Of a stretch of DNA of 64,000 nucleotides, positions 14,625 to 57,810 are shown piece by piece. This stretch comes from an uncultured Bacteroidota bacterium. Lineage in GTDB: Bacteria > Bacteroidota > Bacteroidia > Bacteroidales > 4484-276. The stretch covers positions 39,446-103,445 of the forward strand of contig CALFEP010000082.1 of the NCBI GenBank assembly GCA_937950125.1, given 5' to 3'. A program made the translations under genes and the position numbers. The notes beneath the pieces were generated by a model. The model was not told where the DNA came from. It saw only the letters and a list, made by a program, of their open reading frames with translations, and did not search any database. Within the stretch, counting starts at the first letter, position 1, and each line of letters begins with the position of its first letter.

Positions 14625-16580
14625 TTATAACACTTTTTCACATCTTGGCGGCCAGGCCAGGCTGAAATCTTCTTTTTCGAGTGTAAGATTGGGCGAGTAA
14701 GCAGGATCAAGGGTAAGATGATTTCCCCATTTTTCAATCATAAAAAACACCTCTTTCTGAAACCGTTCCAACCTGTCACCAACCAGGTCATCGCCCCTCG
14801 ATACGCTTTCATGATGGTAAAGCTCGGCATAAGGTGTCCAGACTATTCTATGTCCATTTTTTCTGACTTTCAGGCAAAAATCAACGTCGTTAAAAGCTAT
14901 TGAAAGATTTACTTCATCAAAACCGGCCGCTTCGATAAAAACACATTTCCTAACCACCATGCAGGCAGCGGTAACCGCAGATAATTCATGTATCAGGCTT
15001 ACCCTTCCGAAATACCCTCTTTCGGCGCGGCGAAGATATTTATGTGAATGACCAGCTACGCCGCCAATTCCAAGAATAACACCCCCATGTTGAAGAGTTT
15101 CGTCAGGGTAATACAGCTTTGCGCCCACAATTCCGACCCCTTCCTGATTACATTGGCTCATCATCTCTGTCAGCCAGTCGGGTGTAATCACCTCTGTATC
15201 ATCGTTCAAAAAGCAAAGAAATTCACCTCGTGCAACCCTGGCAGCGCGGTTGTTGATTGCAGAAAAATTAAACGGTGCGGGGTCATCAATGACCTGGAAA
15301 TTCTTTATTTCTCTGATCTCATTCAAATAATCCAAGGTTTCCGGCTCATCAGAATTATTGTTGATTACGAGAATTTCAAAATTGGGATAAGTAGTTTTGC
15401 TCTGTATGCTGTGAATGCATTTTTTCAGTAACCTGTGGTTGTTTCGCGATGGTACGATTATGCTGACCATTGGAATACTGGAAGGAAGCCTGTATTTTAC
15501 GCGAAAGTAAAACGATGGCAGGGTGATGAGTTCTGCATCTTTGTTTGTCCTTTGCAGGTGTTCAAATATTGCCCTGTATCCCGCATCGAGGCTGTAAGGT
15601 TTGACATCAGGGATTTTTGAAGTACTCAGCTTATGAATCCTCCAATGGTACAATACTTTTGGAATGTGAATGATTTGATGGCTTTTTACCCGTTCGATAA
15701 AACGTAAAGCCAGATCATAATCCTGCGAGCCCTCAAAACCTTGACGGAAACCGCCTATTGCCCTGACTATATCGGTGCGGTAAACCCCCAGGTGGCTAAT
15801 CATATTCTGAGATAAAAAGAGGCTGTAATTCCAGTCGCATTTAAAATACGGATCGGTAAAATTGCCCTTGTTGTCCAATTTATCTTCATCAGAATAAATA
15901 AGGGCTGCTTCTGGATGTTGGTTTATAGCACTAACTATACGAAAAAGTGCATCCCTCGTAAGCAGGTCGTCATGATCCAAAAAAGCCAGAAAAACACCAG
16001 AAGCCAATGAAATTGCACTGTTTGATGATTGAGAAATATGGCCATTCTCAGTTCTGAACACCACTTTTATCCTCGAATCCAATGCCTGGATTTTTTTTAA
16101 GTATGAAATGGTTTCAACCTGTGTTGAAGCATCATCGGCTATGCATAACTCCCAAAACGGATAAACCTGATTGCGTAACGATTCGACAGCTTCACTCAGC
16201 CATTGTGGATTGCTGTTATATGTGGGCATGATTACACTAACAAGCGGCTTGTATTTGAAAGATTTCTGTAATTCCTTCATCCTCACAAGATCTTGCTCCG
16301 ATAATTTTCCAAAAAAATCCAACCACTTCTGGTACGTTTCCTTATCATCTCCTAATTCAGAAGAAAATGTGTTTGGCCTTAGCCGATATAGGGCTTTGCG
16401 TAACGCCTTTTTTATTCCCCTCGGCAGCAACACCCTGATTATCCGTACAATGACGCCGGCAAATGAGTTATTCTTCAGCATAATATTTTCAAATTGTGAG
16501 TTGTTCTTTACAATATTCTTATCCCAAATTCCTGCCTTTAAATCATACAAATTTTCAGCTGAAAATTTTGCTACCCTCAA
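14625..16580 (-). CDS. Tandem GT2 (two GT-A domains) glycosyltransferase
   Basis: Two GT2 signatures: 'VSVIMPTYNSNPQWLSEAVESLRNQVYPFWELCIADDAS...FLDHDD' and 'VSIIVPSRNNHRLLKKCIHSIQSKTTYPNFEILVINNNS...FLNDDTE'. The track start is a TTG; an ATG at 16481 is an alternative. Confidence 0.85.
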   Translation of the reverse strand: MRVAKFSAENLYDLKAGIWDKNIVKNNSQFENIMLKNNSFAGVIVRIIRVLLPRGIKKALRKALYRLRPNTFSSELGDDKETYQKWLDFFGKLSEQDLVRMKELQKSFKYKPLVSVIMPTYNSNPQWLSEAVESLRNQVYPFWELCIADDASTQVETISYLKKIQALDSRIKVVFRTENGHISQSSNSAISLASGVFLAFLDHDDLLTRDALFRIVSAINQHPEAALIYSDEDKLDNKGNFTDPYFKCDWNYSLFLSQNMISHLGVYRTDIVRAIGGFRQGFEGSQDYDLALRFIERVKSHQIIHIPKVLYHWRIHKLSTSKIPDVKPYSLDAGYRAIFEHLQRTNKDAELITLPSFYFRVKYRLPSSIPMVSIIVPSRNNHRLLKKCIHSIQSKTTYPNFEILVINNNSDEPETLDYLNEIREIKNFQVIDDPAPFNFSAINNRAARVARGEFLCFLNDDTEVITPDWLTEMMSQCNQEGVGIVGAKLYYPDETLQHGGVILGIGGVAGHSHKYLRRAERGYFGRVSLIHELSAVTAACMVVRKCVFIEAAGFDEVNLSIAFNDVDFCLKVRKNGHRIVWTPYAELYHHESVSRGDDLVGDRLERFQKEVFFMIEKWGNHLTLDPAYSPNLTLEKEDFSLAWPPRCEKVL

Positions 16581-16586
16581 TGGATT

Positions 16587-17978
16587 TTATTTGCTGCTTT
16601 CCTTAAAAAATGAAAGCTTATTCCTTTCAAGGTAGTCGAGCTTGTTTACAATGGCATTACTATCGGGGTAAATTTTAAAATTTGCCAATTTATCGCACCC
16701 CCCAATACAATGATTTTCAAGGTAGCAATTAACCCAGTTTCGTTTGCCTTCGCTGTACCAGTTGATTCCATTCGAAAAAAATACATTAGCCTCCTTGATA
16801 ATGAGCAGAAAAAGAACCCCGTAAAGGATGGTAATATGTAGCCATTTTCTTGTTTTGACGAGTTTACCAAAAAGCAAAATCATGAAATACATGGCCAGTA
16901 TTCCCGGAATTGCATAGGACACATACCTGGATGAAAACGCTGCCTCGAGTCCAAGACACAAGCGACCTACCGAAGTAAAGACAATAAAAAGCAAGGTAAA
17001 AGAACCAAGATAAAAAATTACAAGGGATTTAACCTCCTGATTTTTAATGATCAGAAAAGAAGAAAATGCTATTGATGCCAATAGGATTAAGAACAAACCG
17101 ACAGCGTACAGCTTAAATAATTGGAGTAAAAATGGAAAATTCAATGGAATAAAAGCGCCCCAGGCTGAACCAAACTGAAAAACAGAGAACCAAACATATT
17201 CAAGAGGATGTTCAAGAGGAAACTGAAAACAATCAGTTGCTGGAGCGTGTTGATAATGAAAGAAAAATGAACCGAAGGAGGCCATTGAAAGGATCAAAGC
17301 TCCAATGTTGAACCATTTGTTTTTGACGGTTTTGCTCCTCCACGAAAAAATGAAGAGTATAATAATTACAGGTATTGCAGCGAAAAGCGCAAAACCAGTG
17401 TAGGTAGATAAAAAAACCAGTACAACCAGGCTCATGGCTCTTAAAGCCTGATTATTAAGTGTGAGCACCCAGGCACTTAAAGTAATCAGGAACAATGGAA
17501 CAGGACCATGCGCAAGGTTGGAAGTACCAATAAATGCTTCGAATTGTAACAATGTAAAGAATGCCAGCGGAATAGCTATATCGCTCCAGTGAAGCAAGCC
17601 GAATAGTTTTCGTTTTATCAGCATAGCCAGGACACACGAAACTGCCACAAAACCAGCAGCAATAAACGCTTCAACCCTGACATTCCAATCCGTAAGCGGA
17701 TAAACAACCGCCTGAATTAACCCACCCAACCCTTGTCGGGGAGGACCATGCTGCCAGCTAAATAATTGCCAAAGCGTAGTTTGACCCTTAAATAATTGGG
17801 TTAAAAAATCCCACTGATCCCAAAAAATGACGTTTACAGCGTAACGATCAACAAACCAAATCAACCTGAAAAACAATGCAAGAAAAACAACTGTCAGTGT
17901 CAACAAATGCAATGATTGATTGGCTTCCCGTAATTGGAACATTTCAAAATTTTTCGTTTTTCTTGTCAACTTTATCAA
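16587..17978 (-). CDS. Polytopic membrane protein, paralog A of an unassigned family (possible GT-C-like enzyme)
   Basis: Shares 'Y(A/S)VN..F.D.WDF', 'Q.GP.R', 'GRL.LG.E...SSRY' and a C-terminal 'LDYL..(N/H).L' tail with 42718..44094, and more weakly with 27218..28507. The track start is a TTG; an ATG at 17942 is an alternative. Confidence 0.8.
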   Translation of the reverse strand: MIKLTRKTKNFEMFQLREANQSLHLLTLTVVFLALFFRLIWFVDRYAVNVIFWDQWDFLTQLFKGQTTLWQLFSWQHGPPRQGLGGLIQAVVYPLTDWNVRVEAFIAAGFVAVSCVLAMLIKRKLFGLLHWSDIAIPLAFFTLLQFEAFIGTSNLAHGPVPLFLITLSAWVLTLNNQALRAMSLVVLVFLSTYTGFALFAAIPVIIILFIFSWRSKTVKNKWFNIGALILSMASFGSFFFHYQHAPATDCFQFPLEHPLEYVWFSVFQFGSAWGAFIPLNFPFLLQLFKLYAVGLFLILLASIAFSSFLIIKNQEVKSLVIFYLGSFTLLFIVFTSVGRLCLGLEAAFSSRYVSYAIPGILAMYFMILLFGKLVKTRKWLHITILYGVLFLLIIKEANVFFSNGINWYSEGKRNWVNCYLENHCIGGCDKLANFKIYPDSNAIVNKLDYLERNKLSFFKESSK

Positions 17979-18012: not shown

Positions 18013-19200
18013 CTATTGGGGTCTTGTCTTTTGTTCCAACTTTAAAGTTTCATAGTTATCGTTGATCAACCTTTCCAACACCTCAAATATTACAATATCT
18101 GGTTTCTCAATCCTGATAAGGTTTGTATCAGGATTAGGCTGCCTGATAATTACCGTTTCACCAAAACTTTCTTTAACCAGTATTGCAAGATGCACAAAAT
18201 ATGAATCTGCGAATACCAATATTTTCTTTGATTCGGCGGCATTTTGAAATCTGGTCTCCCAATTGTTAAAAAATTCAGGCGGGCTGGTATCGGGAATTTT
18301 CAACTGCTTATCAATGAGTTGGGCATGTTCATTTGCCGGTAATACCAGAAATTCATAACTATTTGATTCCCGGTTTAACAGCTTTGCCAAATCCATGTTT
18401 TTAAGAATGTAAAAGCGATTTTCGATCTCATAAGGATTTAACTTTTTTACCCGCCAAAAATTAGTATTTATGGTATCCATCAACTGATTGTAAACCAACC
18501 ATGCTCCAATACTGTTCCAATGGGTATCTTCTTTGCGGTAAAGTTGCATTTGATTTCCTGATGCCAGCGATTTTCGCACATCAATTGTTTTTATCCCCTT
18601 TTCCGCTGCTTTTTTTAGGATCAACTCAAGTGTAGTTGGCTGACTTGATTTTTTCAGAGGAACAAACTCATGGTAAAAAGATGTTTTTTCCTGAATGGGC
18701 AAAAAAATAAAAAAACAACCATTTTCCTTGCACCAACCATCCAAATTACTGAGGATTTGTGCAAAATCCTCGATTTCTTCATTCTTCATTCGTTCATATC
18801 CAAGTTGTTCGGACAACCCCCGGTTGAAGTCATCACCTGCAAACAACCAACCATTGCTGCCTGTAATCACCTTATCAGGAAATGGATCGACGCAAAAAAT
18901 ATTTGTCTTAACCGCTTGAAACAATTGCAGAAACTTTGTTTTCATTGGGAAATGACTGCTAAACCATGGAGCAAAATTGTTGACAAAATAAACCGCATCC
19001 AGGTAAGTACCTTTTATTTTACCTTTCAGACCTCTGCCATTGTGAATATGAAAATGATACTCTGGAGGAAGATCAAGTACCTGTTTTGTTTTCAAGGTTT
19101 CAGGAATTGCATCCTTTAAAACCTGCAAGGTAATAGGCAGAAAAATAACCCCAGCAAACAGCATTGTAAACGCCCAGCTATGTAGGTTATTGATTTTCAT
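18013..19200 (-). CDS. AlgX/AlgJ-like (SGNH-type) polysaccharide O-acetylation protein
   Basis: N-terminal signal anchor. 'EDTHWNSIGAW' matches the D-x-H-W catalytic block of AlgJ/AlgX. The stop of the upstream MBOAT gene shares one base with its ATG (TAATG at 19200). Confidence 0.65.
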   Translation of the reverse strand: MKINNLHSWAFTMLFAGVIFLPITLQVLKDAIPETLKTKQVLDLPPEYHFHIHNGRGLKGKIKGTYLDAVYFVNNFAPWFSSHFPMKTKFLQLFQAVKTNIFCVDPFPDKVITGSNGWLFAGDDFNRGLSEQLGYERMKNEEIEDFAQILSNLDGWCKENGCFFIFLPIQEKTSFYHEFVPLKKSSQPTTLELILKKAAEKGIKTIDVRKSLASGNQMQLYRKEDTHWNSIGAWLVYNQLMDTINTNFWRVKKLNPYEIENRFYILKNMDLAKLLNRESNSYEFLVLPANEHAQLIDKQLKIPDTSPPEFFNNWETRFQNAAESKKILVFADSYFVHLAILVKESFGETVIIRQPNPDTNLIRIEKPDIVIFEVLERLINDNYETLKLEQKTRPQ

Positions 19201-20642
19201 TAAAATCTGAAATAAATGAATGGATTATATGAACCCGCTGCAATGTAGGAAACGGATACAATGAACAGTACTATAAGAAATGAATATTTTAACAAAAGAA
19301 AACCATTTTCGAGTAAGGAAGCGGGTTTCAAAAAAGTATGCAACTTTTTTGCAACAAAGGGATATGCCGGCATGGCAAAAACAATTGCAACAATTAGTAA
19401 CATAACGGTCTCGGTGTTGAAAATAAAAAAACTGAGATAATTCACCCTATCCACATTGCCATCATCAAACGAAAACATCTGAGAATAATACGCTAAAGCG
19501 TATTTCAAATCAGGTGACCTGAATAAAACAAAGGTGGTTATCCACACAAAAAGCAGGTAAAAATGTTGAACAGGCGTCCAACTTTTCTCTAACATACGCA
19601 TAAATCCTAACCTTTCGATCATGATAAAAAAACCGTGAGACAAACCCCACAGCAGGAAATTCCAGGAAGCCCCATGCCAAAGCCCGGTGGCAACAAAAAC
19701 AATGATAAGATTTAAATAAATCCTTGATGTTTTCGCAACCCTGTTTCCTCCCAAAGAAATGTAGAGGTAATCTTTGAACCAGGTTGAAAGTGTCATATGC
19801 CAACGTTTCCAAACTTCCTTTACCGATTTTGCAATGTAGGGATAGTTAAAATTTTCAGGAAAATCAAAACCGAGCATCCACCCCATACCAATGGCCATGT
19901 CCGAATAGCCTGAAAAATCGTAATACAACTGGATGACATAGGCCAACATTCCAAACCATAAGATTGCTGACGACAAATCGGAGGGTGTATGAGAAAACAC
20001 CTGGTCGGCAACCGTCGCAAACGTGTTTGCAATAATCATTTTTTTTGCCAGACCAATGATAAACCTTTCTATCCCCAATGCAAATTTATTAATACTAATA
20101 TCCCGGTTTCTTAATTGATTATGAATGTCAGCATATCGGACTATTGGCCCGGCAATTAATTGTGGAAACATGGTCACAAATGTGGCATAATCAACAAAAT
20201 TCCTGTTTGCTTTAATCTTTCCTCTATAAATATCGATGGTGTACGACAGGGTTTGAAACGTGTAAAAACTTATCCCGATTGGCAAGGCTATGTGTGGCAC
20301 ATTTTGGAACGCAGTATTTGAAATACCTGTTAAATCAAGCAATTCTCTGAAATTTTCAAATGCAAAATTGAAATATTTGAAAAAACCGAGAAGCGACAGA
20401 TTAACAACAAGCGATAATGCAAGCCCTATCTTTCGGTAACCACTTTCGATCGCCTGGGCACAATAATAGTCAGCTATTGTTGAAGTTAGAAGCACCAGTA
20501 CAATCCATTTTTCGCCCCAGCTATAAAATACCAGACTTGCCATCACCATAAAAAGGTTTTTAAGCTTTAAGGGCAAAATCAGGTAGAGTGCAAGAACAAT
20601 AGGCAGAAAAAGGAAAATAAAAATCAGGCTGCTGAATAGCAA
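19200..20642 (-). CDS. MBOAT-family membrane O-acyltransferase (AlgI/DltB-like)
   Basis: 480 aa. 'LFSSLIFIFLFLPIVLALYLILP' and the 'WHMTLSTWFKDYLYISLGGNR' His block are typical of MBOAT enzymes. The only available start is a TTG, because an in-frame TAA lies two codons upstream. Confidence 0.9.
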   Translation of the reverse strand: MLFSSLIFIFLFLPIVLALYLILPLKLKNLFMVMASLVFYSWGEKWIVLVLLTSTIADYYCAQAIESGYRKIGLALSLVVNLSLLGFFKYFNFAFENFRELLDLTGISNTAFQNVPHIALPIGISFYTFQTLSYTIDIYRGKIKANRNFVDYATFVTMFPQLIAGPIVRYADIHNQLRNRDISINKFALGIERFIIGLAKKMIIANTFATVADQVFSHTPSDLSSAILWFGMLAYVIQLYYDFSGYSDMAIGMGWMLGFDFPENFNYPYIAKSVKEVWKRWHMTLSTWFKDYLYISLGGNRVAKTSRIYLNLIIVFVATGLWHGASWNFLLWGLSHGFFIMIERLGFMRMLEKSWTPVQHFYLLFVWITTFVLFRSPDLKYALAYYSQMFSFDDGNVDRVNYLSFFIFNTETVMLLIVAIVFAMPAYPFVAKKLHTFLKPASLLENGFLLLKYSFLIVLFIVSVSYIAAGSYNPFIYFRF

Positions 20643-20703: not shown

Positions 20704-23025
20704 CTAATTTTTCAGATAACGGCTAAAAAGTGCACGTAATAGCTGCATTCCAAAGAACACCGTGAGCACAATAAAAATCAGAAAAAAATGATAAACAAAA
20801 TTGAGATAGTGTGGTCCAATAGCATTAAACTGTGTAACAGCGAGGTAGGCAATCAGGGCAACCCTTGCATTTATCATCATAAACAATCCTGACAAAATCA
20901 CCCATGGAATCCAAAATCCACCAAACCTGTGGCGAAATAACAAAAGTACCGTCATCACCATAAAGCAACACATCGAAATCAGGGTCAGCGGGAAGGTTAG
21001 CCAGGCGGTAACCCTTGCTATAATTTTCAGCATAGCATATTTCAAACGGCTCATCAGAGGCAGGTTCAAAAGCGGATCGGGAGCCAAACCTGATGTTGCA
21101 AGGGTAATATTCTGAAACCAGGCAGTCATTTCAGGGCTATTCTGGTGATACCGCGGATATGGATGATAACCCCTGAAAGTAGATGCAAAAATAAAAGCTT
21201 CTTTAAATTTTTGAATGAAGGGGTAGGTGTAACGTTGATCCCATGAGAAGGAAAGAAGCGAAATCTGGTTTCTTCGTGGCAACCTGCCATCGTCCAATGC
21301 TTGATTGATCTCGTTCGCCAATTCACGATAAAAATCCTGCGATTTAAGCAATGTCTGATGGTAACCGGCCTGATCGGCAGCCCACCTCAGTGCCCAATAA
21401 AACCATCCACCCTTGTATTCATCAGGGTAACCGGATTCAAATCCAAGAAAAATGTTGTGGCTGTCTTCCAGGGAAACCTGAAGCTCACGAAATTTCGGAC
21501 TTACTTCATAAGCCTTCATCCTCATTTTTTTGGTAACAGGAACCATGAGTTTGTTCTCGTCATCCGCAATTTTTGTCAGCACGGTGTTCACCTCAGCAAA
21601 AGCACCCGACTTTATCTCGTTGACAATAAATTTACCGTACCAGAAATAGTTGATGGTAGCGATTGATGAATTGCCTATTCCGAGAAACAGAAAAGGAAGG
21701 ATAAATAGACCCACTTTTTTCCAGGGTAACAATTCAACTGATGTTGACCCATCGGCAACGGCCAGGGTACGCCTTTTTTTTATCAACAGGAAAATTCCCC
21801 AAACCGAAAACCAGACTATTGCCGGTAGCATAATGACCCCCTCCTCTCGTGTATTCCAAAATGCAAATAATGCCAGTGAAGCCAGAATGCTCCACCTGAA
21901 AAGCGACCCCATGTTACCATTTCTGTTCACCAGCAAACCTATAAATGTTGCGAAAACCAAAACCCCAAGCGAAGAATAAATGCCTTCCCTCAGTACCCTG
22001 GTCATTGGCTCCACCGTTGTCATTGGGTTAAACAGGATAACAGCAAACAAAACAATTTTCCAAATTCGACTGCGTATTAAACCTGATAATGCATACACAA
22101 AAATTAAGGCCGTGACCACCAACAACAGAAACTGTGAAAAAGGCAAAGGAAGTCCCACACTATTGCTCAAAACAATAAACACAGAATACATGAATCCTTT
22201 GATAAGTGTAAACTGCGAATAATCGCCAAGCCATTGCCCGTTTGCCAGAAAGCAGGCCATATTGATATACAAAGCATCATCGTGCACGGCATTGGTAATA
22301 AAACACATTGGTTGAGCTGAAATCAGAAAAAACTTAAAGACGACCAGTGCAATTACCCAGGCTGCGTATTTTCTGTCGATGGCCAGAAAAAAGCTCTGCA
22401 TGTACCCGAATATCGCCCTCGTGGCCTGTCTTATTTTTGTTGTAATCGCTTGTCCAAAAATTAACAATAATAACCAGACTATAACACAAACTACCAGCAC
22501 AGCGAGCGTACGATTGCGGCTTTTTGTTTTGTCAACCAGATTGAGTGAATCCTGAATGTTTTCATTAAAATTAAGTATTGGATCATTTCCTTCCGGGATG
22601 AAATGTACATATTCAGCGCTGTCGGGCAAATTGCTGGCATGTAAACCCAACAGGCTAAAACGGGAGAGAATTTCCTGTCCCTTTATGACCACGGAATCTT
22701 CTAATCCTTTAAAACATATCTTCCTGATTGAAAAATGAACCGGATCGCTTGTCGGATCAAGCCTAAGCCTGCTTATATCAACAGCTGGCAACAAAAATGA
22801 CAGGCGCTGAAAACTACCATCTCCTGAGTATTGGTTACGAACCTTTGCAATCTCATTAAAATTTCCGTCGGAAGAATAAAAAACCTCTCCATTGCACACA
22901 GTGTCGCATTTCATTTCTACCTCGACCTTAATGGGATAATAATAAGTCTTTTTAAAAGTCGCAAGAAACAACAATGCGATTAAAACAGAGAAAAGGACAA
23001 ACTGCAATTGTTTGAATTTTTTCAT
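20704..23025 (-). CDS. Large polytopic membrane protein: N-terminal 'FNE...LRLDP' module, multi-TM core, soluble loop domain, C-terminal TM bundle (function unknown, GT-C-like?)
   Basis: Start taken at the ATG at 23025 (MKKFKQLQFVLFSVLIALLFL, a signal anchor). The track's 32-aa N-terminal extension overlaps a GC-rich hairpin. There is an acidic 'NAVHDDALY' motif after the first core helix. Confidence 0.8.
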   Translation of the reverse strand: MKKFKQLQFVLFSVLIALLFLATFKKTYYYPIKVEVEMKCDTVCNGEVFYSSDGNFNEIAKVRNQYSGDGSFQRLSFLLPAVDISRLRLDPTSDPVHFSIRKICFKGLEDSVVIKGQEILSRFSLLGLHASNLPDSAEYVHFIPEGNDPILNFNENIQDSLNLVDKTKSRNRTLAVLVVCVIVWLLLLIFGQAITTKIRQATRAIFGYMQSFFLAIDRKYAAWVIALVVFKFFLISAQPMCFITNAVHDDALYINMACFLANGQWLGDYSQFTLIKGFMYSVFIVLSNSVGLPLPFSQFLLLVVTALIFVYALSGLIRSRIWKIVLFAVILFNPMTTVEPMTRVLREGIYSSLGVLVFATFIGLLVNRNGNMGSLFRWSILASLALFAFWNTREEGVIMLPAIVWFSVWGIFLLIKKRRTLAVADGSTSVELLPWKKVGLFILPFLFLGIGNSSIATINYFWYGKFIVNEIKSGAFAEVNTVLTKIADDENKLMVPVTKKMRMKAYEVSPKFRELQVSLEDSHNIFLGFESGYPDEYKGGWFYWALRWAADQAGYHQTLLKSQDFYRELANEINQALDDGRLPRRNQISLLSFSWDQRYTYPFIQKFKEAFIFASTFRGYHPYPRYHQNSPEMTAWFQNITLATSGLAPDPLLNLPLMSRLKYAMLKIIARVTAWLTFPLTLISMCCFMVMTVLLLFRHRFGGFWIPWVILSGLFMMINARVALIAYLAVTQFNAIGPHYLNFVYHFFLIFIVLTVFFGMQLLRALFSRYLKN

Positions 23026-23084
23026 GGAAAATTTACAATTATGAGCTGAGCTATAAAAACCAGTTTTTCGCCAGAAAACCTGTC

Positions 23085-23112
23085 TGCCTTCCTGCCTTTG
23101 GCAGGCCGGCAG
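23085..23112 (-). terminator. GC-rich stem-loop directly after the 1265-aa gene (weak terminator or attenuator candidate)
   Basis: CTGCC-tt-CCTGCC ttt GGCAGG-cc-GGCAG gives an 11 bp interrupted stem. It begins 12 nt after the stop at 23125. On the transcript it is followed by 'acaggUUUUC'. Confidence 0.3.
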
Positions 23113-23124
23113 GAATCTCAAATT

Positions 23125-27217: not shown

Positions 27218-28507
27218 TTATGGTTCGTTGAGGCGGTAAATATTATTTGCTACCGATTCATCAAGTATCCAAGTCCCTCTCGACTCATCAGGAAAGAGTG
27301 TTTTCGGGCATGTTTTGGTTTCGTAATACGTTTTCATTCCTTCGGTTAACAAGGTTTTATGTTTTTCAAGTTTGTGAAAACCATACATTGTGCGACCAGC
27401 GTAAAACAGCAAACTACCGAGCATAATAGCCACCATGACCCATTTGTTGATTTCAGGAAAACACTGAAGTACCAGGATGTACATCAAGGCCAAAAATAAG
27501 GCAGTTATCAACCGGTAACGGTCAGCGGTAGCCACTTCTATCCCTATTCCTATTCGCGAAAAACTAATAACTGCTGCCACTGACACGATAAAAAACATTA
27601 AACCCAGGGTTACAGGATGCATTTTAATACATTTCCACCGGGATATGACCAGCCAAAGGCAAAACAGCAGGATGAAACACCCCAACAAGATAACCGGCAG
27701 GAGTTGTTTCCCAAAAAAAGGAAAGAAGTTATTGGCAAAGAAAGCAGCAAAAAACATCAGACTTCCGATGGAGCGATCGACATCATAAAAACCCGGTTTT
27801 CCCTGAGTAATTAACACATAATTACTGAAGTAACTGAGTACTGAAATTACGGCAAACAACGACCAGACAGCAATCTTATTGCGGCGCATTGGCTTCTCCA
27901 AAAACAAAATGATGTATCCCGCGATAAATACAAAAAGCCCGCTACCAAACGAAAATGTTGCTGCAATGGCAAGTATGACAGCCAGGATAAAAAACCTATG
28001 CTGACTTTTGTTTAAAAACCAAAGTGAAGCCATGATTAAAACGTATTGTACTACGCCGTTCATGGTCATTAAACTCATGTCGGTAATATGGCCCATAGGA
28101 GGAGTGAGCAACAGAACTACCGGAATAAAAAACAACATGTTTCTCTTTTCTGCCGGTAAAAAGTAGTATAAAAGTATGATTAAGATAATGATAGCCAAAT
28201 TGCCTGCAATGGTCATGAACCGGAAATTGATTTCACCCATCATCAGGTAGTTGATTAAAACCATGGCATAATAGGAAAAAATACGGTGTTCGCCATGTTG
28301 CCGGATCAATAGTCTGGCTTTATCACCAATACCAGCCTCATTAAATTTTAACAACCAATCAAGCGCTGCATCAAACTCATCCCAAAAGGGAATATTGACC
28401 GCATAGTGAAATACAGCGATAAAATAAATCGCCAGTGGCAATACAATAGCCAGATAGCCTAAAATGCTTACCCCGGAATTTTTCGATAAGGGCAAACTAA
28501 GTTTCAT
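27218..28507 (-). CDS. Polytopic membrane protein, divergent paralog B of the 16587/42718 family
   Basis: 'HYAVNIPFWDEFDA', 'RQHGEHR' and 'ATADRYRL' align with the motifs of paralogs A and C. Start taken at the ATG at 28507 (MKLSLPLSK), which overlaps the upstream stop by 11 nt. Confidence 0.75.
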   Translation of the reverse strand: MKLSLPLSKNSGVSILGYLAIVLPLAIYFIAVFHYAVNIPFWDEFDAALDWLLKFNEAGIGDKARLLIRQHGEHRIFSYYAMVLINYLMMGEINFRFMTIAGNLAIIILIILLYYFLPAEKRNMLFFIPVVLLLTPPMGHITDMSLMTMNGVVQYVLIMASLWFLNKSQHRFFILAVILAIAATFSFGSGLFVFIAGYIILFLEKPMRRNKIAVWSLFAVISVLSYFSNYVLITQGKPGFYDVDRSIGSLMFFAAFFANNFFPFFGKQLLPVILLGCFILLFCLWLVISRWKCIKMHPVTLGLMFFIVSVAAVISFSRIGIGIEVATADRYRLITALFLALMYILVLQCFPEINKWVMVAIMLGSLLFYAGRTMYGFHKLEKHKTLLTEGMKTYYETKTCPKTLFPDESRGTWILDESVANNIYRLNEP

Positions 28508-29474
28508 TCCACCCAAATCCTGTTTTTTTTGATAAAAATATCCTGATACTATAAAGAAAAATTCCCATTGACAGCAAAGCTTCAAACATTTCGCCAGGGC
28601 CATAAAAACCTGCACAGGCCAAAAAGAAAAACAAAAGTAAAAAGGAGGGTGGAGGAATGAAAAGCTTTTGCAAAACGCCCTTGTTACCAGCCGGAAAAAA
28701 CCAGGCGAGCATCAGTGCAAGGAAGGCGGTAATTCCGACAAATGGATAGAAAAGCGGCAAAACCGGGTTGATAAAATTATGCAAATTTGTTTCCTGCTGG
28801 TAATTGTAGTCTTTGAAAATCCCCTCTGCCTTCCATTTAAAAAAGTGTTGACCCCAGCTTAATTCTTCGCCAACCATCACAAGTATTACGAAAGCAAAAA
28901 TCAACGAAACTGTTTTTATTAACCTGCGGTTGGCTTTCGATTTCATATTTTGATCGTTGTGTAGTGCTGAAATGAAGAAAAGTACCGACGACAGAAACAA
29001 AACTGACGTACTTACATCCTCATAAACTCCCTCGTAGGTTGGCAATCCATTGAACAGGAAAGTCAAATGCAAGGTAAAACCAACAATGGCGCTGGCCAAC
29101 AGTGTAACTACATTAAAATTTACTAACGCCTTGTTATCATCATAAATAAAAAACCTTTTAACCCGGGCGGGATCAATAAATGAGGCAATACATCCATAGG
29201 TTTTTTCCTGAAGCAGAACAACAAAGGATTTGAGCCGGTTGGTTAAAAAAAGAATTCCAAAAAAAATGCAAAGCAACCCAAAAATAAAAACCGAACCTTG
29301 CAGGATGATTTTTGTAATGGCATTTATTTGGCCATCGGGGCTTGCATTGGTTTCCAAAAACTGAACGGCTCCTTCAAAATACAAAACACTGAAAACCAAT
29401 ATCACTGACCCAATAAATAAGCAACTTACACCTGTAACCTTCAAAAAAATTCCCATATCCCGGTACTTTTTCAT
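28497..29474 (-). CDS. Hypothetical polytopic membrane protein (325 aa) with 'GEELSWGQ' motif
   Basis: About 8 hydrophobic helices. No family recognised. ATG start; tightly coupled to both neighbours. Confidence 0.7.
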   Translation of the reverse strand: MKKYRDMGIFLKVTGVSCLFIGSVILVFSVLYFEGAVQFLETNASPDGQINAITKIILQGSVFIFGLLCIFFGILFLTNRLKSFVVLLQEKTYGCIASFIDPARVKRFFIYDDNKALVNFNVVTLLASAIVGFTLHLTFLFNGLPTYEGVYEDVSTSVLFLSSVLFFISALHNDQNMKSKANRRLIKTVSLIFAFVILVMVGEELSWGQHFFKWKAEGIFKDYNYQQETNLHNFINPVLPLFYPFVGITAFLALMLAWFFPAGNKGVLQKLFIPPPSFLLLFFFLACAGFYGPGEMFEALLSMGIFLYSIRIFLSKKTGFGWNET

Positions 29475-29477
29475 CCT

Positions 29478-30578
29478 TTAAAAATTTGTGATCATTATAT
29501 CAGGGATTCCAGTTCTTTTCGATAATTCCTTTACCGCAGGGTTACTTTTCATCCTGAATAAAACAGCCTTTTCAATCCCGAGCTTTTCAGCAAAAGCAAT
29601 CTGGTTTTTAGTGTCGTCGAAACTGATGGTTCTGCCAGGTGGAAGCCAAATTGCTGCCGTTAGTTTTCCATTGTCCCCGACAAAAGCAAAAGGATTGGCA
29701 GCCAGGTAATTTAACAAGGCATCTGATTTTTTCAAAATGGTCATTTTTACCATTCCCGAATCCTGCCAGGGTATTCCAGCATCTATTTTCGCTCCAAGCC
29801 TTGCCTTTTGAGCATTTATCCCATTAAGCATAAACGCAGGAGAGCCACCAAGATGCAGCATATTAATGTCCTTCTTTTTGGCTTCAATCACAGCAAAATA
29901 GTACATTGCAGAGGTGTTCCATTTCAGTATTTCATTCATCACACCTTCTTTCACACCAAAAAAGCCAAGGGTTGGCCGGTTTTGCCAATAGTGCATGACC
30001 AATCCAGCTATCCGCTCACCATTTTTTTTCACCATGATGATTTCAGATTTTATTGTAGGGGAAAATATATTTTCAAAAGTCACAATCAGCGATTTGTCTT
30101 GATGACGTTTGGCAACAAAAGGCAGGTACATCCGATCATAAAACACGTGCTGAGCTTCCTCAGAAGTCTCAATTTCGTAATCAAGTTTTTGCGATTTCAC
30201 CCAGCGGGCTATTCTTCCAAAACCAGACCGGCTGTTTTTCAGCATCTCATCGAGCGGTGCGGAAACATCCATCTGGGTGTTGATGAACCGGGGAATAATA
30301 AAGGTTTCACCACTGTTTGCGATTATCTTTTCTGGCAGGGAGTTTTCGGACAATAAAAGAGAACATTGCGGATGATAATTATTCAATTTCCTTATCAGGT
30401 TTTTTTCGGGAACATATTCGGGCGCACCATACAGTGGGTTTTCAAAAAACAAGGAGACCCAAAAACGTGCATTTACATAATCATAACCTAAGTAGGCAAT
30501 TTCAATTTTTTCACCAGTGGTTTTTGCTTTGCCCCGGATTACAGTTACACTATTTTTGACCTTATTTTCTGTTGGCAT
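29478..30578 (-). CDS. FemAB-like / GNAT (Acetyltransf_6-like) acyl- or aminoacyl-transferase
   Basis: The layout 'LKNSRSGFGRIARWVKSQKLDYEI...' followed by 'IIMVKKNGERIAGLVMHYW...LHLGGSPAFMLNGINAQKARLGA' resembles the FemAB-like GNAT fold. It is paralogous to the N-terminal domain of the adjacent 1177-aa protein. Confidence 0.55.
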   Translation of the reverse strand: MPTENKVKNSVTVIRGKAKTTGEKIEIAYLGYDYVNARFWVSLFFENPLYGAPEYVPEKNLIRKLNNYHPQCSLLLSENSLPEKIIANSGETFIIPRFINTQMDVSAPLDEMLKNSRSGFGRIARWVKSQKLDYEIETSEEAQHVFYDRMYLPFVAKRHQDKSLIVTFENIFSPTIKSEIIMVKKNGERIAGLVMHYWQNRPTLGFFGVKEGVMNEILKWNTSAMYYFAVIEAKKKDINMLHLGGSPAFMLNGINAQKARLGAKIDAGIPWQDSGMVKMTILKKSDALLNYLAANPFAFVGDNGKLTAAIWLPPGRTISFDDTKNQIAFAEKLGIEKAVLFRMKSNPAVKELSKRTGIPDIMITNF

Positions 30579-30664: not shown

Positions 30665-33600
30665 TTAATCATTTCGCGTCAGTTGATTATCAATTTTCCT
30701 TTTGAAAATTACGGTGTCCTTTTCAGCAAAAATTTTCACAAACCCGTTTTTATCCATTTCTTCAACAATTTGCTTCCATCCTTTTTCCAGTATATGCGTT
30801 GAATGATTACCAGTCCAGTCGAAATTATCAGCCGATTGAACTACCGGTGCTTCAAATAAGACTGTTTGGATTTTTGCAGGAATCCATCGCATTAACAGCA
30901 GAAGTTCCCGCCATTTCAGATGCTCTATCATGTGTGTGGCAATCAGCGCATTATATTTTTCCGAAAGATCTAGGTTCCAAATGTAATCGCTCAGTGGAAT
31001 CTGACGATAGCGGTTATCCTTGCATTTTTGGGTAGATTGATCGGAGATTACATCAAAATTATCCCACTCTTCAACAAACCCGTATCGTGATAAAATATCC
31101 CGTGCAAGATCGCCCCGCCATCCACCAATTTCGAGAACACGGGCAGGTCTCGGAACGTGGTTTTCGATCCATTGAAATACAAAAGGCAGTGTGTAGTGAG
31201 CCTGTTCAGGATATTTGTGTAATGAATCATTTGCAATATCTACAAGTTGACCGAAGGTCATAAGGTCATAGTTTTCTCTGAAAAGGTCCATTTCCCTGAT
31301 GGATTTGGCCAAAGGGCTTTCCTCGTCAGTCTTCGGTAGTTCTTTGATGCTTTCTGCGGGTTGTCCGGTTTTGTCCGGAACTGGCAGCAACGCTTGTTTG
31401 GCAGCCTTAACCCAGGTTTTCAGCTTAACTGAGTTATAATCCTTACCAGCAATTATATAGCTAAACAGATCGAGCCATGCAATACGGCGGTTTGGAAATG
31501 TCTTTACCAGTTTCCAAAGAGCAATCATTCCTGCCTTTTTGTCTTTAAGCTGGTAACAGAGATTAACGTACACTTTGTGGTGCATGTAATAAGCATCCCA
31601 GTGATTTTTGAGAAAACCCCGGTTTCGGTCGATTATTTTTCCATAATTGACCATCTTCAACCTGCTGAATTTTTCATGCGTAAGCTGCCCATCACCGTGG
31701 TGATGAATTTTGACCAAAACCTCAGGGACCGTCCTGAAATTGTAATACTTCGATAGCCGCAACATAAAATCGGTGTCCTCGCCCACCCTGAGCGTTTCAT
31801 CGTAAAATCCGGTTTTTTTCAAACATTCCCGCTTCACGCTCAGCCCAAAGCCATTGCCGATGGCCGTCGAAACCATCAACCCCTGTTCAAGGGTTTCAAA
31901 ATCGGCCGGCCACAGCTGCGTTCTGATAATTTCCTCACCAGTGGCAGTATCTTTTACACGGGTAATGCCTGTCCACACAAAGCCGGGATTGTTGTTGGCC
32001 TCATCAAATGTTTGCCTGATTTTCATCAAAATATCCGGGAGGTACTCATCGTCATCATCCAGAAAGTTGAGGTATTTGCCGGAGGCGTTTTTCATTCCGG
32101 TGTTGTAAGCCCCAGCCGCGCCTTTTGAATTTTCGTGCACCAGGTATTTAATTCTCGGATCGTTGAACGATTCAACCATAGTTCGGGTTTCAAGGCTGTT
32201 TGCATCGTCCACAATAATTTGCTCCCAATTGGTAAACGACTGCTTTTGAACGCTTTCTATGTTTCTTCTAAGAAAGCCGGGGCGATTGTTGGTTGGTGTG
32301 ATGATGCTGAAAACCGGATTGGGATTGAAACCGGGAGGTTCGTTTAATATGGAGGCCATTCTCGTCTCCATTTCCAGAAATCCGGCGTACACAGCATGCG
32401 ACTTTTGATAAAGCTGCCGATGCCTTCGGAATGCCTGCAAGGAAGCCAAATCATGCAATTGTATGTTCATTAAGCGTCGTCCCGACCGACTGTCAACAGG
32501 ATGCTGATAGGTCCTGATAAAAACAAGTGTTTCTTCAATTTTCCTTACCTCTCTTCCCAACTCAAGAATTGAGAGCCAGAAATCAAAATCTTCGTATCCG
32601 TGTTGCAGGAAACTGGAATATCCTTCGGTTTTCTCCCAGTCACACCTTCTGTAACAGGCATTTGCTATGATGCAATTTGCCCTCAACATACCTTCAAAAG
32701 TGTAGTCATGGATACGAAACGGTTCGTATTTATGGCCAAACAGAAATGCGTTTGAGTAAACTATGCCAACATTTGGATTTGTATCCATCACTTCAACACA
32801 TTTGTGTAAAAACTCAGGCGCAATCCTGTCATCGGCATCCAGGTTAACAATCAGGTCGCCTTTGGCGTGGGTTATAGCCAGGTTTCGGGCATTGGCCGGA
32901 CCATGATTTGCTGTATAAAAAATCCTGACTTTTTTGTGTCTGATTTTTTTCAGAACCGTTGCCGTTTCGTCGGTTGAGCCATCATCAACAATAATTATTT
33001 CATAGAATTGAAAGGTTTGATTAAAAATGGATTGTAGATTTTCGAGAATGTATTTACCATGATTAAAACACGGAACAACCACCGTTACCCGAACGGGCAA
33101 GCTGAACCGGATGTGAACTTTGTAAAGGGCTTTTTTAATCAGAAGCCAACTGTGGCGCATGATAAGGCCAACATGATACCTCCAGTCGTCGGGTGGTGGC
33201 GGCGGTGAATGAACAATTTCGCGTATCACCTCCTTTTCAACCACCTTTTCAACCTCGGTCACAACCGACCTATCAGCAAAAATATGGAAGTACTGTGCCA
33301 TGGTGCCTCCATAGCTTCTCAAATGGGTTTCGATGCGCTGGATATCCGAACCTCCAAAATTGTAGTAACGAACCCTGCTGCTAAAATACCTGATGGCTTC
33401 CCAATTGGCCAGCGAATGCCCCCCGAGATGTCCGTACGTTGGATCGCTTGCACTGAGCAGAGCATATGCTGATTTTGGATTGAAAACCAAATAAATGGCA
33501 GCGTGAGGTGTTCCAACATTATCGAAAACAGTAATGATGCGCCTTTGATCTCGTTTTACAATTTCATCATCCAACAACTTAAAATCGTCGTAAGAAAACC

Positions 33601-34198
33601 GGAAGGTAAGGCCTTGCCGCTTATAGGTTAGCTCAACAAGTGAGTAAAATGCGCGAAGATCGTCCGTAACCAGTGAAATTAGATTGTGTGAAAGGGCTTT
33701 TCTAATGTTCCTTTTCCTGTTGGAATTTAACTGATTCCAAAGTTCCTTTTCCGTCTTTCCTTCAAAATCAATTAAATATGTGTAGCGCGTCATCTGCTTG
33801 TAGCCCCTCCACCTGAAAGGCAGCCAATCGATGAAGTTGTGAGAAGTACAAAACTGCTCAAAATCATCATAAGGGATCTCATCAAGCAGCAATTCAAGCC
33901 ATTGCCGTTCAAGGGTTGACCTGTCGTGTTCGGATAAACGGCTCAGGTCTTTGAAAAGCGGACCCAGCGTTCGGGTAATTGGAGGCTCATTAATTTTCCC
34001 AAGATAATAAGCCAGCGGGATTCCGGCAACAATTTCATCGTTTTCAAATACAGCCAGGATTTTAAAATTCCCTTTGGTGATGGCGTCGAGCCACCACGAA
34101 TAACAAAAGACATCGCCCTGTGGGGAATCATCCACAAAGCGGTTCCATAGGTCGAATTGAGCTGGCAGTAATTCAATTGCAAAACTTTTCATTTTCAT
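30665..34198 (-). CDS. 1177-aa four-domain protein: FemAB-like GNAT + GT2 + GT2 + class I methyltransferase-like domain
   Basis: aa 1-310: 'LNSNRKRNIRKALSHNL...AAIYLVFNPKSAYALLSASDP...YNFGGS'. GT2-A: 'VTVVVPCFNHGKYILENLQSIFNQTFQFYEIIIVDDGSTDET...NLDADD'. GT2-B: 'FSIITPTNNRPGFLRRNIESVQKQSFTNWEQIIVDDANS...FLDDDDE'. C-terminus: 'VLEIGGWRGDLARDIL...ALIATHMIEHL'. Confidence 0.85.
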   Translation of the reverse strand: MKMKSFAIELLPAQFDLWNRFVDDSPQGDVFCYSWWLDAITKGNFKILAVFENDEIVAGIPLAYYLGKINEPPITRTLGPLFKDLSRLSEHDRSTLERQWLELLLDEIPYDDFEQFCTSHNFIDWLPFRWRGYKQMTRYTYLIDFEGKTEKELWNQLNSNRKRNIRKALSHNLISLVTDDLRAFYSLVELTYKRQGLTFRFSYDDFKLLDDEIVKRDQRRIITVFDNVGTPHAAIYLVFNPKSAYALLSASDPTYGHLGGHSLANWEAIRYFSSRVRYYNFGGSDIQRIETHLRSYGGTMAQYFHIFADRSVVTEVEKVVEKEVIREIVHSPPPPPDDWRYHVGLIMRHSWLLIKKALYKVHIRFSLPVRVTVVVPCFNHGKYILENLQSIFNQTFQFYEIIIVDDGSTDETATVLKKIRHKKVRIFYTANHGPANARNLAITHAKGDLIVNLDADDRIAPEFLHKCVEVMDTNPNVGIVYSNAFLFGHKYEPFRIHDYTFEGMLRANCIIANACYRRCDWEKTEGYSSFLQHGYEDFDFWLSILELGREVRKIEETLVFIRTYQHPVDSRSGRRLMNIQLHDLASLQAFRRHRQLYQKSHAVYAGFLEMETRMASILNEPPGFNPNPVFSIITPTNNRPGFLRRNIESVQKQSFTNWEQIIVDDANSLETRTMVESFNDPRIKYLVHENSKGAAGAYNTGMKNASGKYLNFLDDDDEYLPDILMKIRQTFDEANNNPGFVWTGITRVKDTATGEEIIRTQLWPADFETLEQGLMVSTAIGNGFGLSVKRECLKKTGFYDETLRVGEDTDFMLRLSKYYNFRTVPEVLVKIHHHGDGQLTHEKFSRLKMVNYGKIIDRNRGFLKNHWDAYYMHHKVYVNLCYQLKDKKAGMIALWKLVKTFPNRRIAWLDLFSYIIAGKDYNSVKLKTWVKAAKQALLPVPDKTGQPAESIKELPKTDEESPLAKSIREMDLFRENYDLMTFGQLVDIANDSLHKYPEQAHYTLPFVFQWIENHVPRPARVLEIGGWRGDLARDILSRYGFVEEWDNFDVISDQSTQKCKDNRYRQIPLSDYIWNLDLSEKYNALIATHMIEHLKWRELLLLMRWIPAKIQTVLFEAPVVQSADNFDWTGNHSTHILEKGWKQIVEEMDKNGFVKIFAEKDTVIFKRKIDNQLTRND

Positions 34199-40200: not shown

Positions 40201-40457
40201 ACCAGCCTGAACGAATAATCGGGGGCTCTGTTTGATTTTCCATCCTTTACCTTGTCCTCGTGAATTACTTCGCGATAGCTTTCGGCATAGCCATTTTCGT
40301 TATCAACATCCCAGCCAAGCGCCTTAAAAAATGGGTCAATAAAATCGCGGCGGGTAAGGGTTTCGTTGTAGTCTGATTTTTTGTAAGATTCGTACTGCTC
40401 ACCAAAGCGTTTGACGAGTTCAGAAACTTTTTGAAAAGCTGCTTCCTTGTTTGTCAT
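37293..40457 (-). CDS. Single-chain type IIG restriction-modification enzyme (PD-ExK nuclease + gamma-class N6-adenine methyltransferase + TaqI-like C-terminal specificity domain)
   Basis: N-terminus 'NRAPDYSFRLVGGKRLFFVEAKKP' carries the nuclease motif (PD...E-A-K). MTase motif I is 'IVDPACGSGSFLLGAY' and motif IV is 'VVIGNPPYVRIQ'. The TaqI_C-like block is 'LLRPFLYGSDVRRYTIGKYHKHLIFPYS'. ATG start. Confidence 0.85.
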   Translation of the reverse strand: MTNKEAAFQKVSELVKRFGEQYESYKKSDYNETLTRRDFIDPFFKALGWDVDNENGYAESYREVIHEDKVKDGKSNRAPDYSFRLVGGKRLFFVEAKKPAVYIKDEIQPAYQVRRYGWNAKLPVCILTDFEEFAVYDCTQKPNNADKPHVGRIAYFTFREYNEKFDFLWETFAKEQVLKGSFDRFVQSDTHKKGTATVDKEFLQSLDNWRTYLATSVSWNNKTLTEEEINYVVQQTIDRVIFLRIAEDRGIEPENNLKHCIQSGDFYQNLFQVFKIADEKYNSGLFDFSKDKISHSLIIDNKVIKNLVEELYYPKSEYEFGVMPVEILGTAYEQFLGKIIRITPAHHAKIEEKPEVRKAGGVYYTPQYIVDYIVKNTVGTLVEGKTPKEVSELKIVDPACGSGSFLLGAYQFLLDWHKDYYSNHGKPSKGSKSNPLTPTGSLTTAEKKRILLNNIYGVDIDVNAVEVTKLSLLLKCLEGETEASINSQFKLFNERVLPSLDHNIQSGNSLIDTDFYSTQLDFGDEKKIKPFNWVSAFPEVFRRKAVYGVEPGKEENLLTLAKKAKHHAQKTLEYVSQLEEEVSQASEPEMVAKFKSGFDVVIGNPPYVRIQTINTTQTNYFKKYYHSANYGNYDLYVLFIEKTLKILNSTGRSGMILPNKFFTAEYGNSIRLLLAGKKAVSQINNFTTNQVFTNATTYTCLLFLSNIPVETFSYQKIELVNNMVDFLYSEKKKNLDSECLIGKWNFVDSSKSEIFEKINHNKLLLNDICLKIFKGSSTGNDSVYLVDVVESNNEISTFYSEILHERVQIETALLRPFLYGSDVRRYTIGKYHKHLIFPYSSHEPVCLTEFKKMKKEFPLASEYFKKVRTILQKRKLSFTTEDFYKYSAARSLGWYNKPKILIPDLLVESRIAVDEKGEFFHGPAIHSVILKDEYSCLGMKYIAALLGSRLFWFFLSNTGTALRGNAYRLTPEYIKPFPVKNIDSKNNKEIGIQIELINLVSQLENCNHQLPTLTLESDRQLLKGKIDFCENRINQLVYELYGLTEEEIEIVESA

Positions 40458-49251: not shown

Positions 49252-49289
49252 GCACAAGATTTTATGCTTGACATTAAAATATTATAGAT

Positions 49290-53025: not shown

Positions 53026-53030
53026 AACTG

Positions 53031-53783: not shown

Positions 53784-53850
53784 CTTTTCATCTTTTCAAT
53801 TTCTTATTTTTTAAAGGCTATGATGAAGAACTACCTTTTTACTCATAGCA

Positions 53851-54630: not shown

Positions 54631-54688
54631 CAATTAAGTTACTGCGAGCTAAATTTGGAGGAAGGTTGCCGATGGAATATTTTGTCCG

Positions 54689-57805: not shown

Positions 57806-57810
57806 TGGAT

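Follow-up and report, generated by a model that had tools for sequence, protein, structure and literature searches.

What do three polytopic membrane proteins of an unnamed family contribute to a locus that makes and exports a glycan? The question is raised by a 64,000-nucleotide stretch of DNA, hereafter the window, from an uncultured Bacteroidota bacterium (Bacteroidales, lineage 4484-276; GenBank assembly GCA_937950125.1, contig CALFEP010000082.1, positions 39,446 to 103,445 of the forward strand). The window is occupied by one long co-oriented glycan locus, and three open reading frames (ORFs), here called A, B and C, are embedded among its genes (Table 1). We propose that A, B and C are periplasmic glycosyltransferases that decorate the exported glycan using polyprenyl-phosphate-linked sugar donors, and put the probability of this reading at about 0.7. 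From homology, family size, fold, topology, conservation and gene neighbourhoods, all of which were computed, we infer catalysis, the type of donor and the identity of the acceptor.

Three divergent members of one membrane protein family

A first-pass annotation of the window, made from the sequence alone, described A, B and C as three related proteins of an unassigned family. Indeed, all three ORFs are present on the minus strand, as are nearly all genes of the window, and every motif string quoted at the time is found in the translations. Public gene calls start copy A at an ATG at 17942, which gives a protein of 451 residues (P0001), and residue numbers of A are counted from that ATG throughout. 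A and C are colinear from end to end, as had been claimed (BLASTP, 26% identity over 427 aligned positions, E = 1e-33). B was said to keep the shared motifs in weaker form, and only profile comparison detects its kinship: BLASTP of B against A or C is not significant (E about 0.06), whereas a profile of 56 A/C-type sequences and one of nine B-type sequences are aligned by hhalign with a probability of 99.3% (E = 2.9e-20, 327 columns), the quoted motifs falling opposite one another. By itself, the A-type hidden Markov model (HMM) gives B a score of 44.9 bits. Proteins from other samples come closer to A (65% identity) and to C (35% at best) than A and C come to each other (26%); the three are therefore ancient subfamily members and not local duplicates. 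Neither tblastn nor a family HMM search found a fourth copy or remnant in the window.

The label "unassigned" also stands, as judged by Pfam 2025 and NCBIfam release 20, in which A, B and C have no match above threshold. When 56 aligned members were scanned singly in Pfam, only two weak matches, both to DUF6057, were obtained, and searches of the PDB sequences with A, B and C singly and with family profiles returned nothing but noise. Public records name members "hypothetical". UniProt A0A0K8PAB6 from Flexilinea flocculi carries the name "RgtA/B/C/D-like domain-containing", which was not reproduced in the Pfam scan.

The family is very large. Among 1.84 billion cluster representatives (clusters at 50% identity), 14,645 were retrieved by a profile search at E ≤ 1e-3, 10,349 at 1e-10 and 2,700 at 1e-30. 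A single peptide pattern led to relatives in 140 species-representative genomes, mostly of Acidobacteriota, others belonging to Thermodesulfobacteriota, Verrucomicrobiota, Gemmatimonadales and Myxococcota; among the relatives found with this pattern, the nearest to A is encoded by a Lentimicrobiaceae metagenome-assembled genome (MAG), at 49% identity. Several copies per locus or genome are common: scattered copies within one genome are frequent, A-type genes form tandem pairs in loci L008, L031, L041 and L059, and two B-type paralogs of 414 and 422 residues stand in tandem on a Bacteroidota-like contig (L086, 10001..12797). Two members are fusions, one joining the family domain to a YfhO domain (PF09586), which we take to be a lipid-linked-sugar glycosyltransferase of teichoic-acid glycosylation, and the other carrying a C-terminal PA14 carbohydrate-binding domain. 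Several members (P0169, P0189, P0224 and P0126) have an N-terminal extension of about 250 residues without a Pfam match, in which a transmembrane (TM) helix is followed by a conserved segment rich in beta structure ("...YxWTNG...PNPGG...LAGGP...") and then by more TM helices. This extension may be an extracytoplasmic binding module.

Predicted fold, topology and conserved residues

AlphaFold models were made of A from a 56-sequence alignment (predicted local distance difference test, pLDDT, 95.1; predicted template-modelling score, pTM, 0.94) and of B from a 37-sequence alignment (pLDDT 90.6, pTM 0.90), and each was compared with the PDB by Foldseek. The 11 highest-ranked matches of A are all of the GT-C class: oligosaccharyltransferase (OST) complex chains, AglB, ALG9, PglB, AftB and AftA. 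The OST chains are 640 to 655 residues long, consistent with STT3. For B, ranks 1 to 12 are likewise all GT-C or GT-C-like (STT3A, AftA, ArnT, PglB, AftB and PIG-U), with PimE and ALG3 lower in the list. These GT-C matches have probabilities of 0.9 to 1.0 and query-normalised template-modelling scores (TM-scores) of 0.31 to 0.49, mostly 0.40 to 0.49, the value for ArnT against B being 0.49. The other membrane proteins in the lists, namely major facilitator superfamily and CLC proteins and G-protein-coupled receptors, reach probabilities of at most about 0.2 and TM-scores of 0.11 to 0.20, transporters having probabilities near 0.1 and TM-scores near 0.13. The first-pass annotation had likened the family to GT-C enzymes and had allowed that comparison might assign it to a transporter family; the top matches of both models bear out the former, and the latter is rejected on these scores, which for transporters are at noise level in both models. 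No Wzy_C match was found in A, B or C with Pfam, and WaaL, Wzy and SEDS structures are absent from the top 50 fold matches. A fold search of BFVD was uninformative. The GT-C assignment is consistent across two independent models; it is made at the level of predicted fold and carries no strong E-value.

The modelled helices, family-averaged hydropathy and charge counts together predict 11 TM helices, with the N-terminus inside and the C-terminus outside. The N-terminal tail is rich in Lys and Arg. Moreover, the density of these two residues is 0.188 per residue in the six proposed short cytoplasmic segments and 0.031 in the three proposed short periplasmic loops, an overall bias of six-fold, and those that do occur in the proposed short periplasmic loops are mostly the invariant R339 itself. 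A separate line of evidence comes from four cysteines kept in about 90% of A-type members. No sequence loses one partner alone: C238 goes with C329 in 6 of 6 sequences and C406 with C416 in 5 of 5, a pattern indicative of two disulfides and so of periplasmic positions. On this signature, read from the alignment, the C-terminal tail, the loop that follows TM7 and TM9 at its outer end are assigned to the periplasm. The tail is helical, about 65 residues long and disulfide-stapled in most members. All four cysteines are present in A and none is present in B or C.

Conservation in this framework is concentrated on one side of the membrane. Across both subfamilies, D42, R327 and R339 are invariant (43 of 43 sequences), and N37 (41 of 43), Q64, R69, G183, Y230, G331, Y340 (42 of 43) and P426 are conserved in at least 90%; every one of these residues is on the periplasmic side in the predicted topology. 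D42, whose counterparts are D43 in B and D44 in C, lies about eight residues beyond TM1. At their outer ends, TM9 carries R327, two residues from C329, and TM10 carries R339-Y340. An acidic (W/F)D..(W/F)D motif just after the first helix had been singled out in the first-pass annotation as reminiscent of a GT-C catalytic loop. Its first Asp is the invariant D42, and the 11-TM model, the positive-inside bias and the external cysteines all predict D42 to be periplasmic; the second acidic position of the motif fares less well, being Asp or Glu in just 35 of the 43 sequences, so that the family is defined by the first Asp alone.

A proposed role in decorating the exported glycan

How might such proteins act? 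Each enzyme, an inner-membrane protein of about 430 to 460 residues, would accept a sugar borne by polyprenyl (undecaprenyl) phosphate once this carrier had been flipped to the periplasmic side, and would then move the sugar onto the rhamnan-type polysaccharide that Wzm/Wzt export. In the first periplasmic loop, the invariant Asp after TM1 would serve as catalytic base, while R327 and R339-Y340 would hold the phosphate and sugar of the donor. Three divergent copies would correspond to three side-chain additions that differ in donor, position or linkage. The probable maker of the lipid-linked donor is the methyltransferase-GT2 fusion encoded in the window, or else a small GT2 of a similar kind; in NCBIfam, the GT2 part of the fusion comes closest to AglJ, dolichyl-phosphate hexose transferase, ArnC and PgfS. 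The use of such a donor would fit the gene context, namely this window GT2 and the GT2/epimerase modules of B-type relatives described below.

There is more precedent for this scheme than the first-pass annotation allowed when it stated that such a pathway normally finishes the polymer in the cytoplasm, since extracytoplasmic decoration of ABC-exported glycans by GT-C enzymes is established (PMC9574508, PMC11127046). The closest functional analogue of A, B and C is, by comparison of features, GT136, a GT-C enzyme encoded by ORF12 of the Citrobacter youngae O1 Wzm/Wzt O-polysaccharide locus (Kelly et al., PNAS 2024; PMC11127046). It crosses the membrane with 11 helices, has a small periplasmic domain, mostly helical, just beyond TM1, acts after polymerisation at the periplasmic face, and depends on residues D31, E34, H106, R349 and Y350 (PMC11127046). 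A, B and C are predicted to have the same architecture, with 11 TM helices and a small helical domain after TM1, and they show invariant residues of the same kinds, an Asp and an Arg-Tyr pair, whose equivalence is positional only. Where GT136 has D31-x-x-E34-Y35 after TM1, A has D42-x-x-D45-F46, and the R349-Y350 of GT136, about 300 residues later in "FQRYALYSISP", has a positional counterpart in R339-Y340 of A in "SSRYVSYAIPG".

Sequence comparison with GT136 was made through a protein on a metagenome contig (L088, 2735..4690), located with a degenerate pattern back-translated from the published mutagenesis primers; it carries all eight published residues (D31, E34, Y35, H106, H174, E176, R349 and Y350). 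The primers had no match in E. coli genomes, and a search for relatives on viral contigs, for a deeper GT136 profile, found none. Against this sequence the family gave an hhalign probability of 2.8% and negative HMM scores, although the Arg-Tyr motifs do line up. CAZy families are defined by sequence, and this similarity is not significant; A, B and C are therefore not members of GT136. They also lack its C-terminal DUF7024/carbohydrate-binding-module domain, and neither the UbiA-type synthase nor the MATE/SMR flippase of the GT136 system was found among the window ORFs.

A second precedent, for several such genes in one locus, is provided by Gram-positive bacteria, in which CsdB, CsdD and WpsJ of Lactococcus and GacL of Streptococcus belong to glycosylation systems acting on ABC-exported rhamnans (PMC9574508). 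The GT-C enzymes of these multi-component systems have no sequence conservation and are recognised by predicted structure only, and the flippase shared by those of Lactococcus, CflA, is encoded elsewhere in the genome (PMC9574508). By analogy, the flippase for the window locus may also be encoded elsewhere. Compared by description only, the window locus is alike in having RgpF, ABC export and several polytopic GT-C proteins, and the donor proposed for it is, as in those systems, made by a GT-A/GT2 enzyme on polyprenyl phosphate. The hosts differ, that of the window being of Gram-negative type. A third group consists of the best structural matches of A and B, namely ArnT (GT83), AftA/AftB (GT85/GT89) and PglB/STT3/AglB (GT66). 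In these enzymes, too, the first extracytoplasmic loop bears an acidic residue, and basic or Tyr residues at the outer face serve the lipid phosphate. In contrast to them, the family is much smaller (about 450 residues) and has no large soluble periplasmic domain, and the searches found no sequence or profile similarity between the two.

The neighbourhoods of relatives tie some members to glycan export. A cassette of Wzt, Wzm, an A-type gene, a gene for a soluble protein with two GT2 domains (2xGT2) and RgpF occurs in two relatives, the Lentimicrobiaceae MAG (L001), which is the closest syntenic relative of the window, and L084; in both, the family gene directly follows wzm. Six independent contexts (the window, L001, L084, L079, L013 and L089) have an ortholog of the 2xGT2 gene as the next gene downstream of a family member. 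In L089, that family member is B-type, and a DUF2142 gene is next. These arrangements suggest that the family gene and the 2xGT2 gene form a functional couple across several phyla. A different module surrounds B-type members and was seen twice: two NAD-dependent sugar-nucleotide epimerases/dehydratases, the family gene (tandem-duplicated in one of the two cases) and a GT2 of 244 to 247 residues, whose best match in the window is the methyltransferase-GT2 protein. By analogy, this is an Arn-like, three-component layout, in which a nucleotide sugar would be modified, loaded on polyprenyl phosphate and transferred outside the membrane.

A family-wide survey gives a different picture. It covered 80 species-representative loci, largely from Acidobacteriota, with 64 immediate neighbours on the same strand. 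These neighbours are heterogeneous, with GT2 in four, PMT_2 in four, Wzy_C in two and unrelated genes in the rest, and within 10 kb Wzm is present at 4 of the 80 loci and any GT2 at 12. With counts this low the link to ABC-exported glycans is not family-wide, and a general association with Wzm/Wzt loci, which the first-pass annotation had raised, is rejected; the link is limited to the subclade nearest A. The family profile gave hhalign probabilities below 1% against four PMT_2-type neighbours and the DUF2142 protein of the window.

The survey counts weigh against the proposed role, as do several other points. The E-values of the GT-C fold matches are modest (5e-3 to 1e-1), with TM-scores below 0.5, and no profile link was found to the PMT_2-type neighbours, DUF2142, GT136 or the PDB sequences. 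D42 is equated with the catalytic Asp of solved GT-C enzymes by position only, and the exported polymer is an inferred acceptor. As to the donor, the matches of the 470-residue fusion protein to polyprenyl-phosphate synthases all fall below curated cut-offs, and the scans of window ORFs revealed no candidate for a flippase of the GtrA, MATE or SMR type.

The alternative that survives best, though we judge it unlikely, keeps the GT-C fold and changes what is transferred. A, B and C would be en-bloc transferases, ligases or polymerases that work outside the membrane, where they would attach or polymerise an oligo- or polysaccharide previously assembled on undecaprenyl (pyro)phosphate; the adjacent 2xGT2 protein, for instance, could do the assembling. 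The models would be WpsJ and WpsI of Lactococcus, which serve as precedents (PMC9574508), or an OST. OSTs (STT3, AglB and PglB) are indeed among the best structural matches; however, they dominate the GT-C entries in the PDB, so that their high rank says little about function, and their large C-terminal periplasmic domain is lacking in the family. The position of a family member immediately upstream of the 2xGT2 ortholog in six contexts, its position directly after wzm in L001 and L084, and the failure to detect WaaL or Wzy_C among the scanned window ORFs all speak for en-bloc transfer, but the presence of three divergent copies together here, and of tandem copies in other loci, better fits side-chain diversity, and the two epimerases and small GT2 of the B-type modules indicate a monosaccharide donor. 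There is only an outside chance that the family is a compact, widespread en-bloc transferase attaching to its final acceptor either the finished lipid-linked glycan that Wzm/Wzt deliver or an oligosaccharide made by the 2xGT2 protein; that it defines a GT-C family new at the CAZy level, with over 10,000 sequence clusters, is more likely.

It is also distinctly unlikely that the same chemistry serves another acceptor, be it lipid A/core, another envelope glycan or a protein, in the manner of ArnT or PMT, with the position in the locus being incidental or reflecting shared regulation. In its favour, the gene is not near Wzm/Wzt or glycan genes in most of the 80 surveyed loci, where its neighbours are unrelated, genomes frequently hold several scattered copies, and ArnT is among the best fold matches of B. 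Against it, the three copies of the window are surrounded by genes of a single glycan locus that run in the same direction, two relatives keep the Wzt-Wzm-[A]-2xGT2-RgpF cassette, and A-type and B-type members both adjoin orthologs of one 2xGT2 gene. Finally, a non-enzymatic role as transporter, lipid-linked-sugar flippase or scaffold, with the GT-C likeness reflecting a helical bundle only, could draw on the weak fold statistics (best E 5e-3, TM-scores below 0.5) and on the flippase role left vacant because none was identified in the window, but it is very improbable: transporter matches score far below the GT-C matches in both probability and TM-score, the invariant polar and charged residues (D, R and R-Y) are all periplasmic, a pattern of an active site and not of a pore, and the YfhO and PA14 fusions fit an extracytoplasmic carbohydrate enzyme.

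The surrounding glycan locus and what the family means

The genes around A, B and C were identified by scanning window ORFs of at least 150 residues in Pfam. Wzm and Wzt are the ABC exporter of the glycan, and they are accompanied by RgpF-type proteins, many multidomain GT2/GT1 glycosyltransferases, methyltransferases, sulfotransferases, a pyruvyl transferase, a pair of MBOAT/DltB-like and AlgX-like proteins and a DUF2142 protein. A is placed between the AlgX-like gene and the 2xGT2 gene, and B between a 1265-residue RgpF-GT1-GT2 protein and two proteins without a family match. Neither a PRPP-dependent, UbiA-type polyprenyl phosphoribose synthase nor a protein of the WaaL/Wzy_C kind was seen among these ORFs.

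Table 1. Positions, within the window, of A, B and C, their motifs and the other features discussed
Feature	Coordinates	Strand	Remarks
Copy A, predicted GT-C-fold membrane protein	16587..17978	-	463 aa maximal ORF, TTG start at 17978
Copy A motif VNVIFWDQWD	17808..17837	-	residues 36-45, directly after TM1; Asp42, candidate catalytic residue
Copy A motif RLCLGLEAAFSSRY	16923..16964	-	residues 327-340; R327, R339, Y340 and disulfide cysteine C329
Copy B, divergent subfamily member	27218..28507	-	429 aa, identical to public call P0085
Copy B motif VNIPFWDEFD	28370..28399	-	
Copy B motif QHGEHR	28283..28300	-	
Copy B motif RIGIGIEVATADRY	27515..27556	-	
Copy C	42718..44094	-	458 aa, immediately upstream of wzt and wzm
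Copy C motif VNLLFSDAWD	43954..43983	-	
Copy C motif QFGPHR	43885..43902	-	
Copy C motif RLRLGFEFAGSSRY	43063..43104	-	
Wzm	40514..41335	-	Pfam ABC2_membrane
Wzt with Wzt_C domain	41351..42667	-	Pfam ABC_tran, Wzt_C
Soluble two-GT2-domain protein (2xGT2)	14625..16580	-	651 aa; Pfam; immediately downstream of A
Methyltransferase-GT2 fusion	47845..49257	-	470 aa; Pfam; candidate polyprenyl-phosphate-hexose synthase
DUF2142 protein	45830..47902	-	690 aa, polytopic; Pfam PF09913, E 1.3e-59
Broken-ORF stretch	49258..50666	-	1.4 kb of short ORFs
First broken ORF	50482..50670		TM helix, then "RFNAHPDEH"
MBOAT and AlgX-like SGNH proteins	18013..20642	-	immediately upstream of A
Polytopic protein with soluble middle	20704..23121	-	805 aa, about 10 TM segments; no Pfam/NCBIfam match
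Polytopic protein	28497..29474	-	325 aa, "GEELSWGQ" motif, adjoins B; no Pfam/NCBIfam match
Soluble protein	29478..30578	-	366 aa; no Pfam/NCBIfam match
FemAB/GNAT-like-GT2 fusion	30665..34198	-	1177 aa
Restriction-methylase	37293..40457	-	1054 aa, directly downstream of wzm
Sulfotransferase regions	52357..54633 and 55010..58710	-	

The gene of the methyltransferase-GT2 fusion adjoins that of the DUF2142 protein and not A, B or C. The DUF2142 protein has no similarity to the family profile and is not a family member. Next to the fusion gene is a stretch of broken ORFs, the first of which encodes a TM helix and a "PDE" motif that recalls "FQSPDEFFH" after TM1 of the DUF2142 neighbour. To judge from this sequence, it is probably a decayed DUF2142-like gene; as a fourth copy of the family it was rejected on negative family HMM scores and on this resemblance of its start.

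Other genes of the locus bear on the glycan itself. The MBOAT protein next to A is DltB-like (below cut-off), and with its AlgX-like SGNH partner it is likely to carry out extracytoplasmic O-acylation, a second kind of periplasmic-face modification. The two sulfotransferase regions encode two clear sulfotransferases, one weaker sulfotransferase-like protein, a TylF-methyltransferase/pyruvyl-transferase fusion and a TupA-like ATP-grasp protein, and the glycan is probably sulfated, pyruvylated and methylated. The 1177-residue protein has an unusual combination of an N-terminal FemAB/GNAT-like domain and two GT2 domains, and might aminoacylate or acylate the glycan. Beside wzm is a fused restriction-methylase of the Eco57I/MmeI-like kind, with BREX PglX (below cut-off) as its best NCBIfam match, and in L084 (5630..7501) a different restriction-modification pair, of N6_N4 methylase and HNH genes, and a HEPN/nucleotidyltransferase pair lie just upstream of wzt. 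Defence genes seem to have been inserted repeatedly beside the exporter genes.

A, B and C belong to a sequence family that is new, while both the kind of enzyme and the kind of pathway are known; newness is judged here against Pfam and NCBIfam, and the family may already be present in CAZy or InterPro. The concept itself is unchanged, as decoration of ABC-exported polymers by several sequence-unrelated GT-C genes per locus was already established. What makes the finding useful is how large the uncovered family is (about 14,600 clusters; it is a candidate for a new CAZy GT family), together with concrete residues (D42, R327 and R339-Y340) and partners to test. Were en-bloc transfer to prove true instead, the family would supply a ligase or oligosaccharyltransferase for Acidobacteriota and Bacteroidota, whose enzyme at that step is often unidentified. 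With A, B and C as decorating glycosyltransferases, the glycan of this locus would receive up to three distinct periplasmic additions, besides the contributions of the DUF2142 protein and the MBOAT/AlgX-like acylation pair, and its final structure would therefore not be predictable from the cytoplasmic glycosyltransferases alone.

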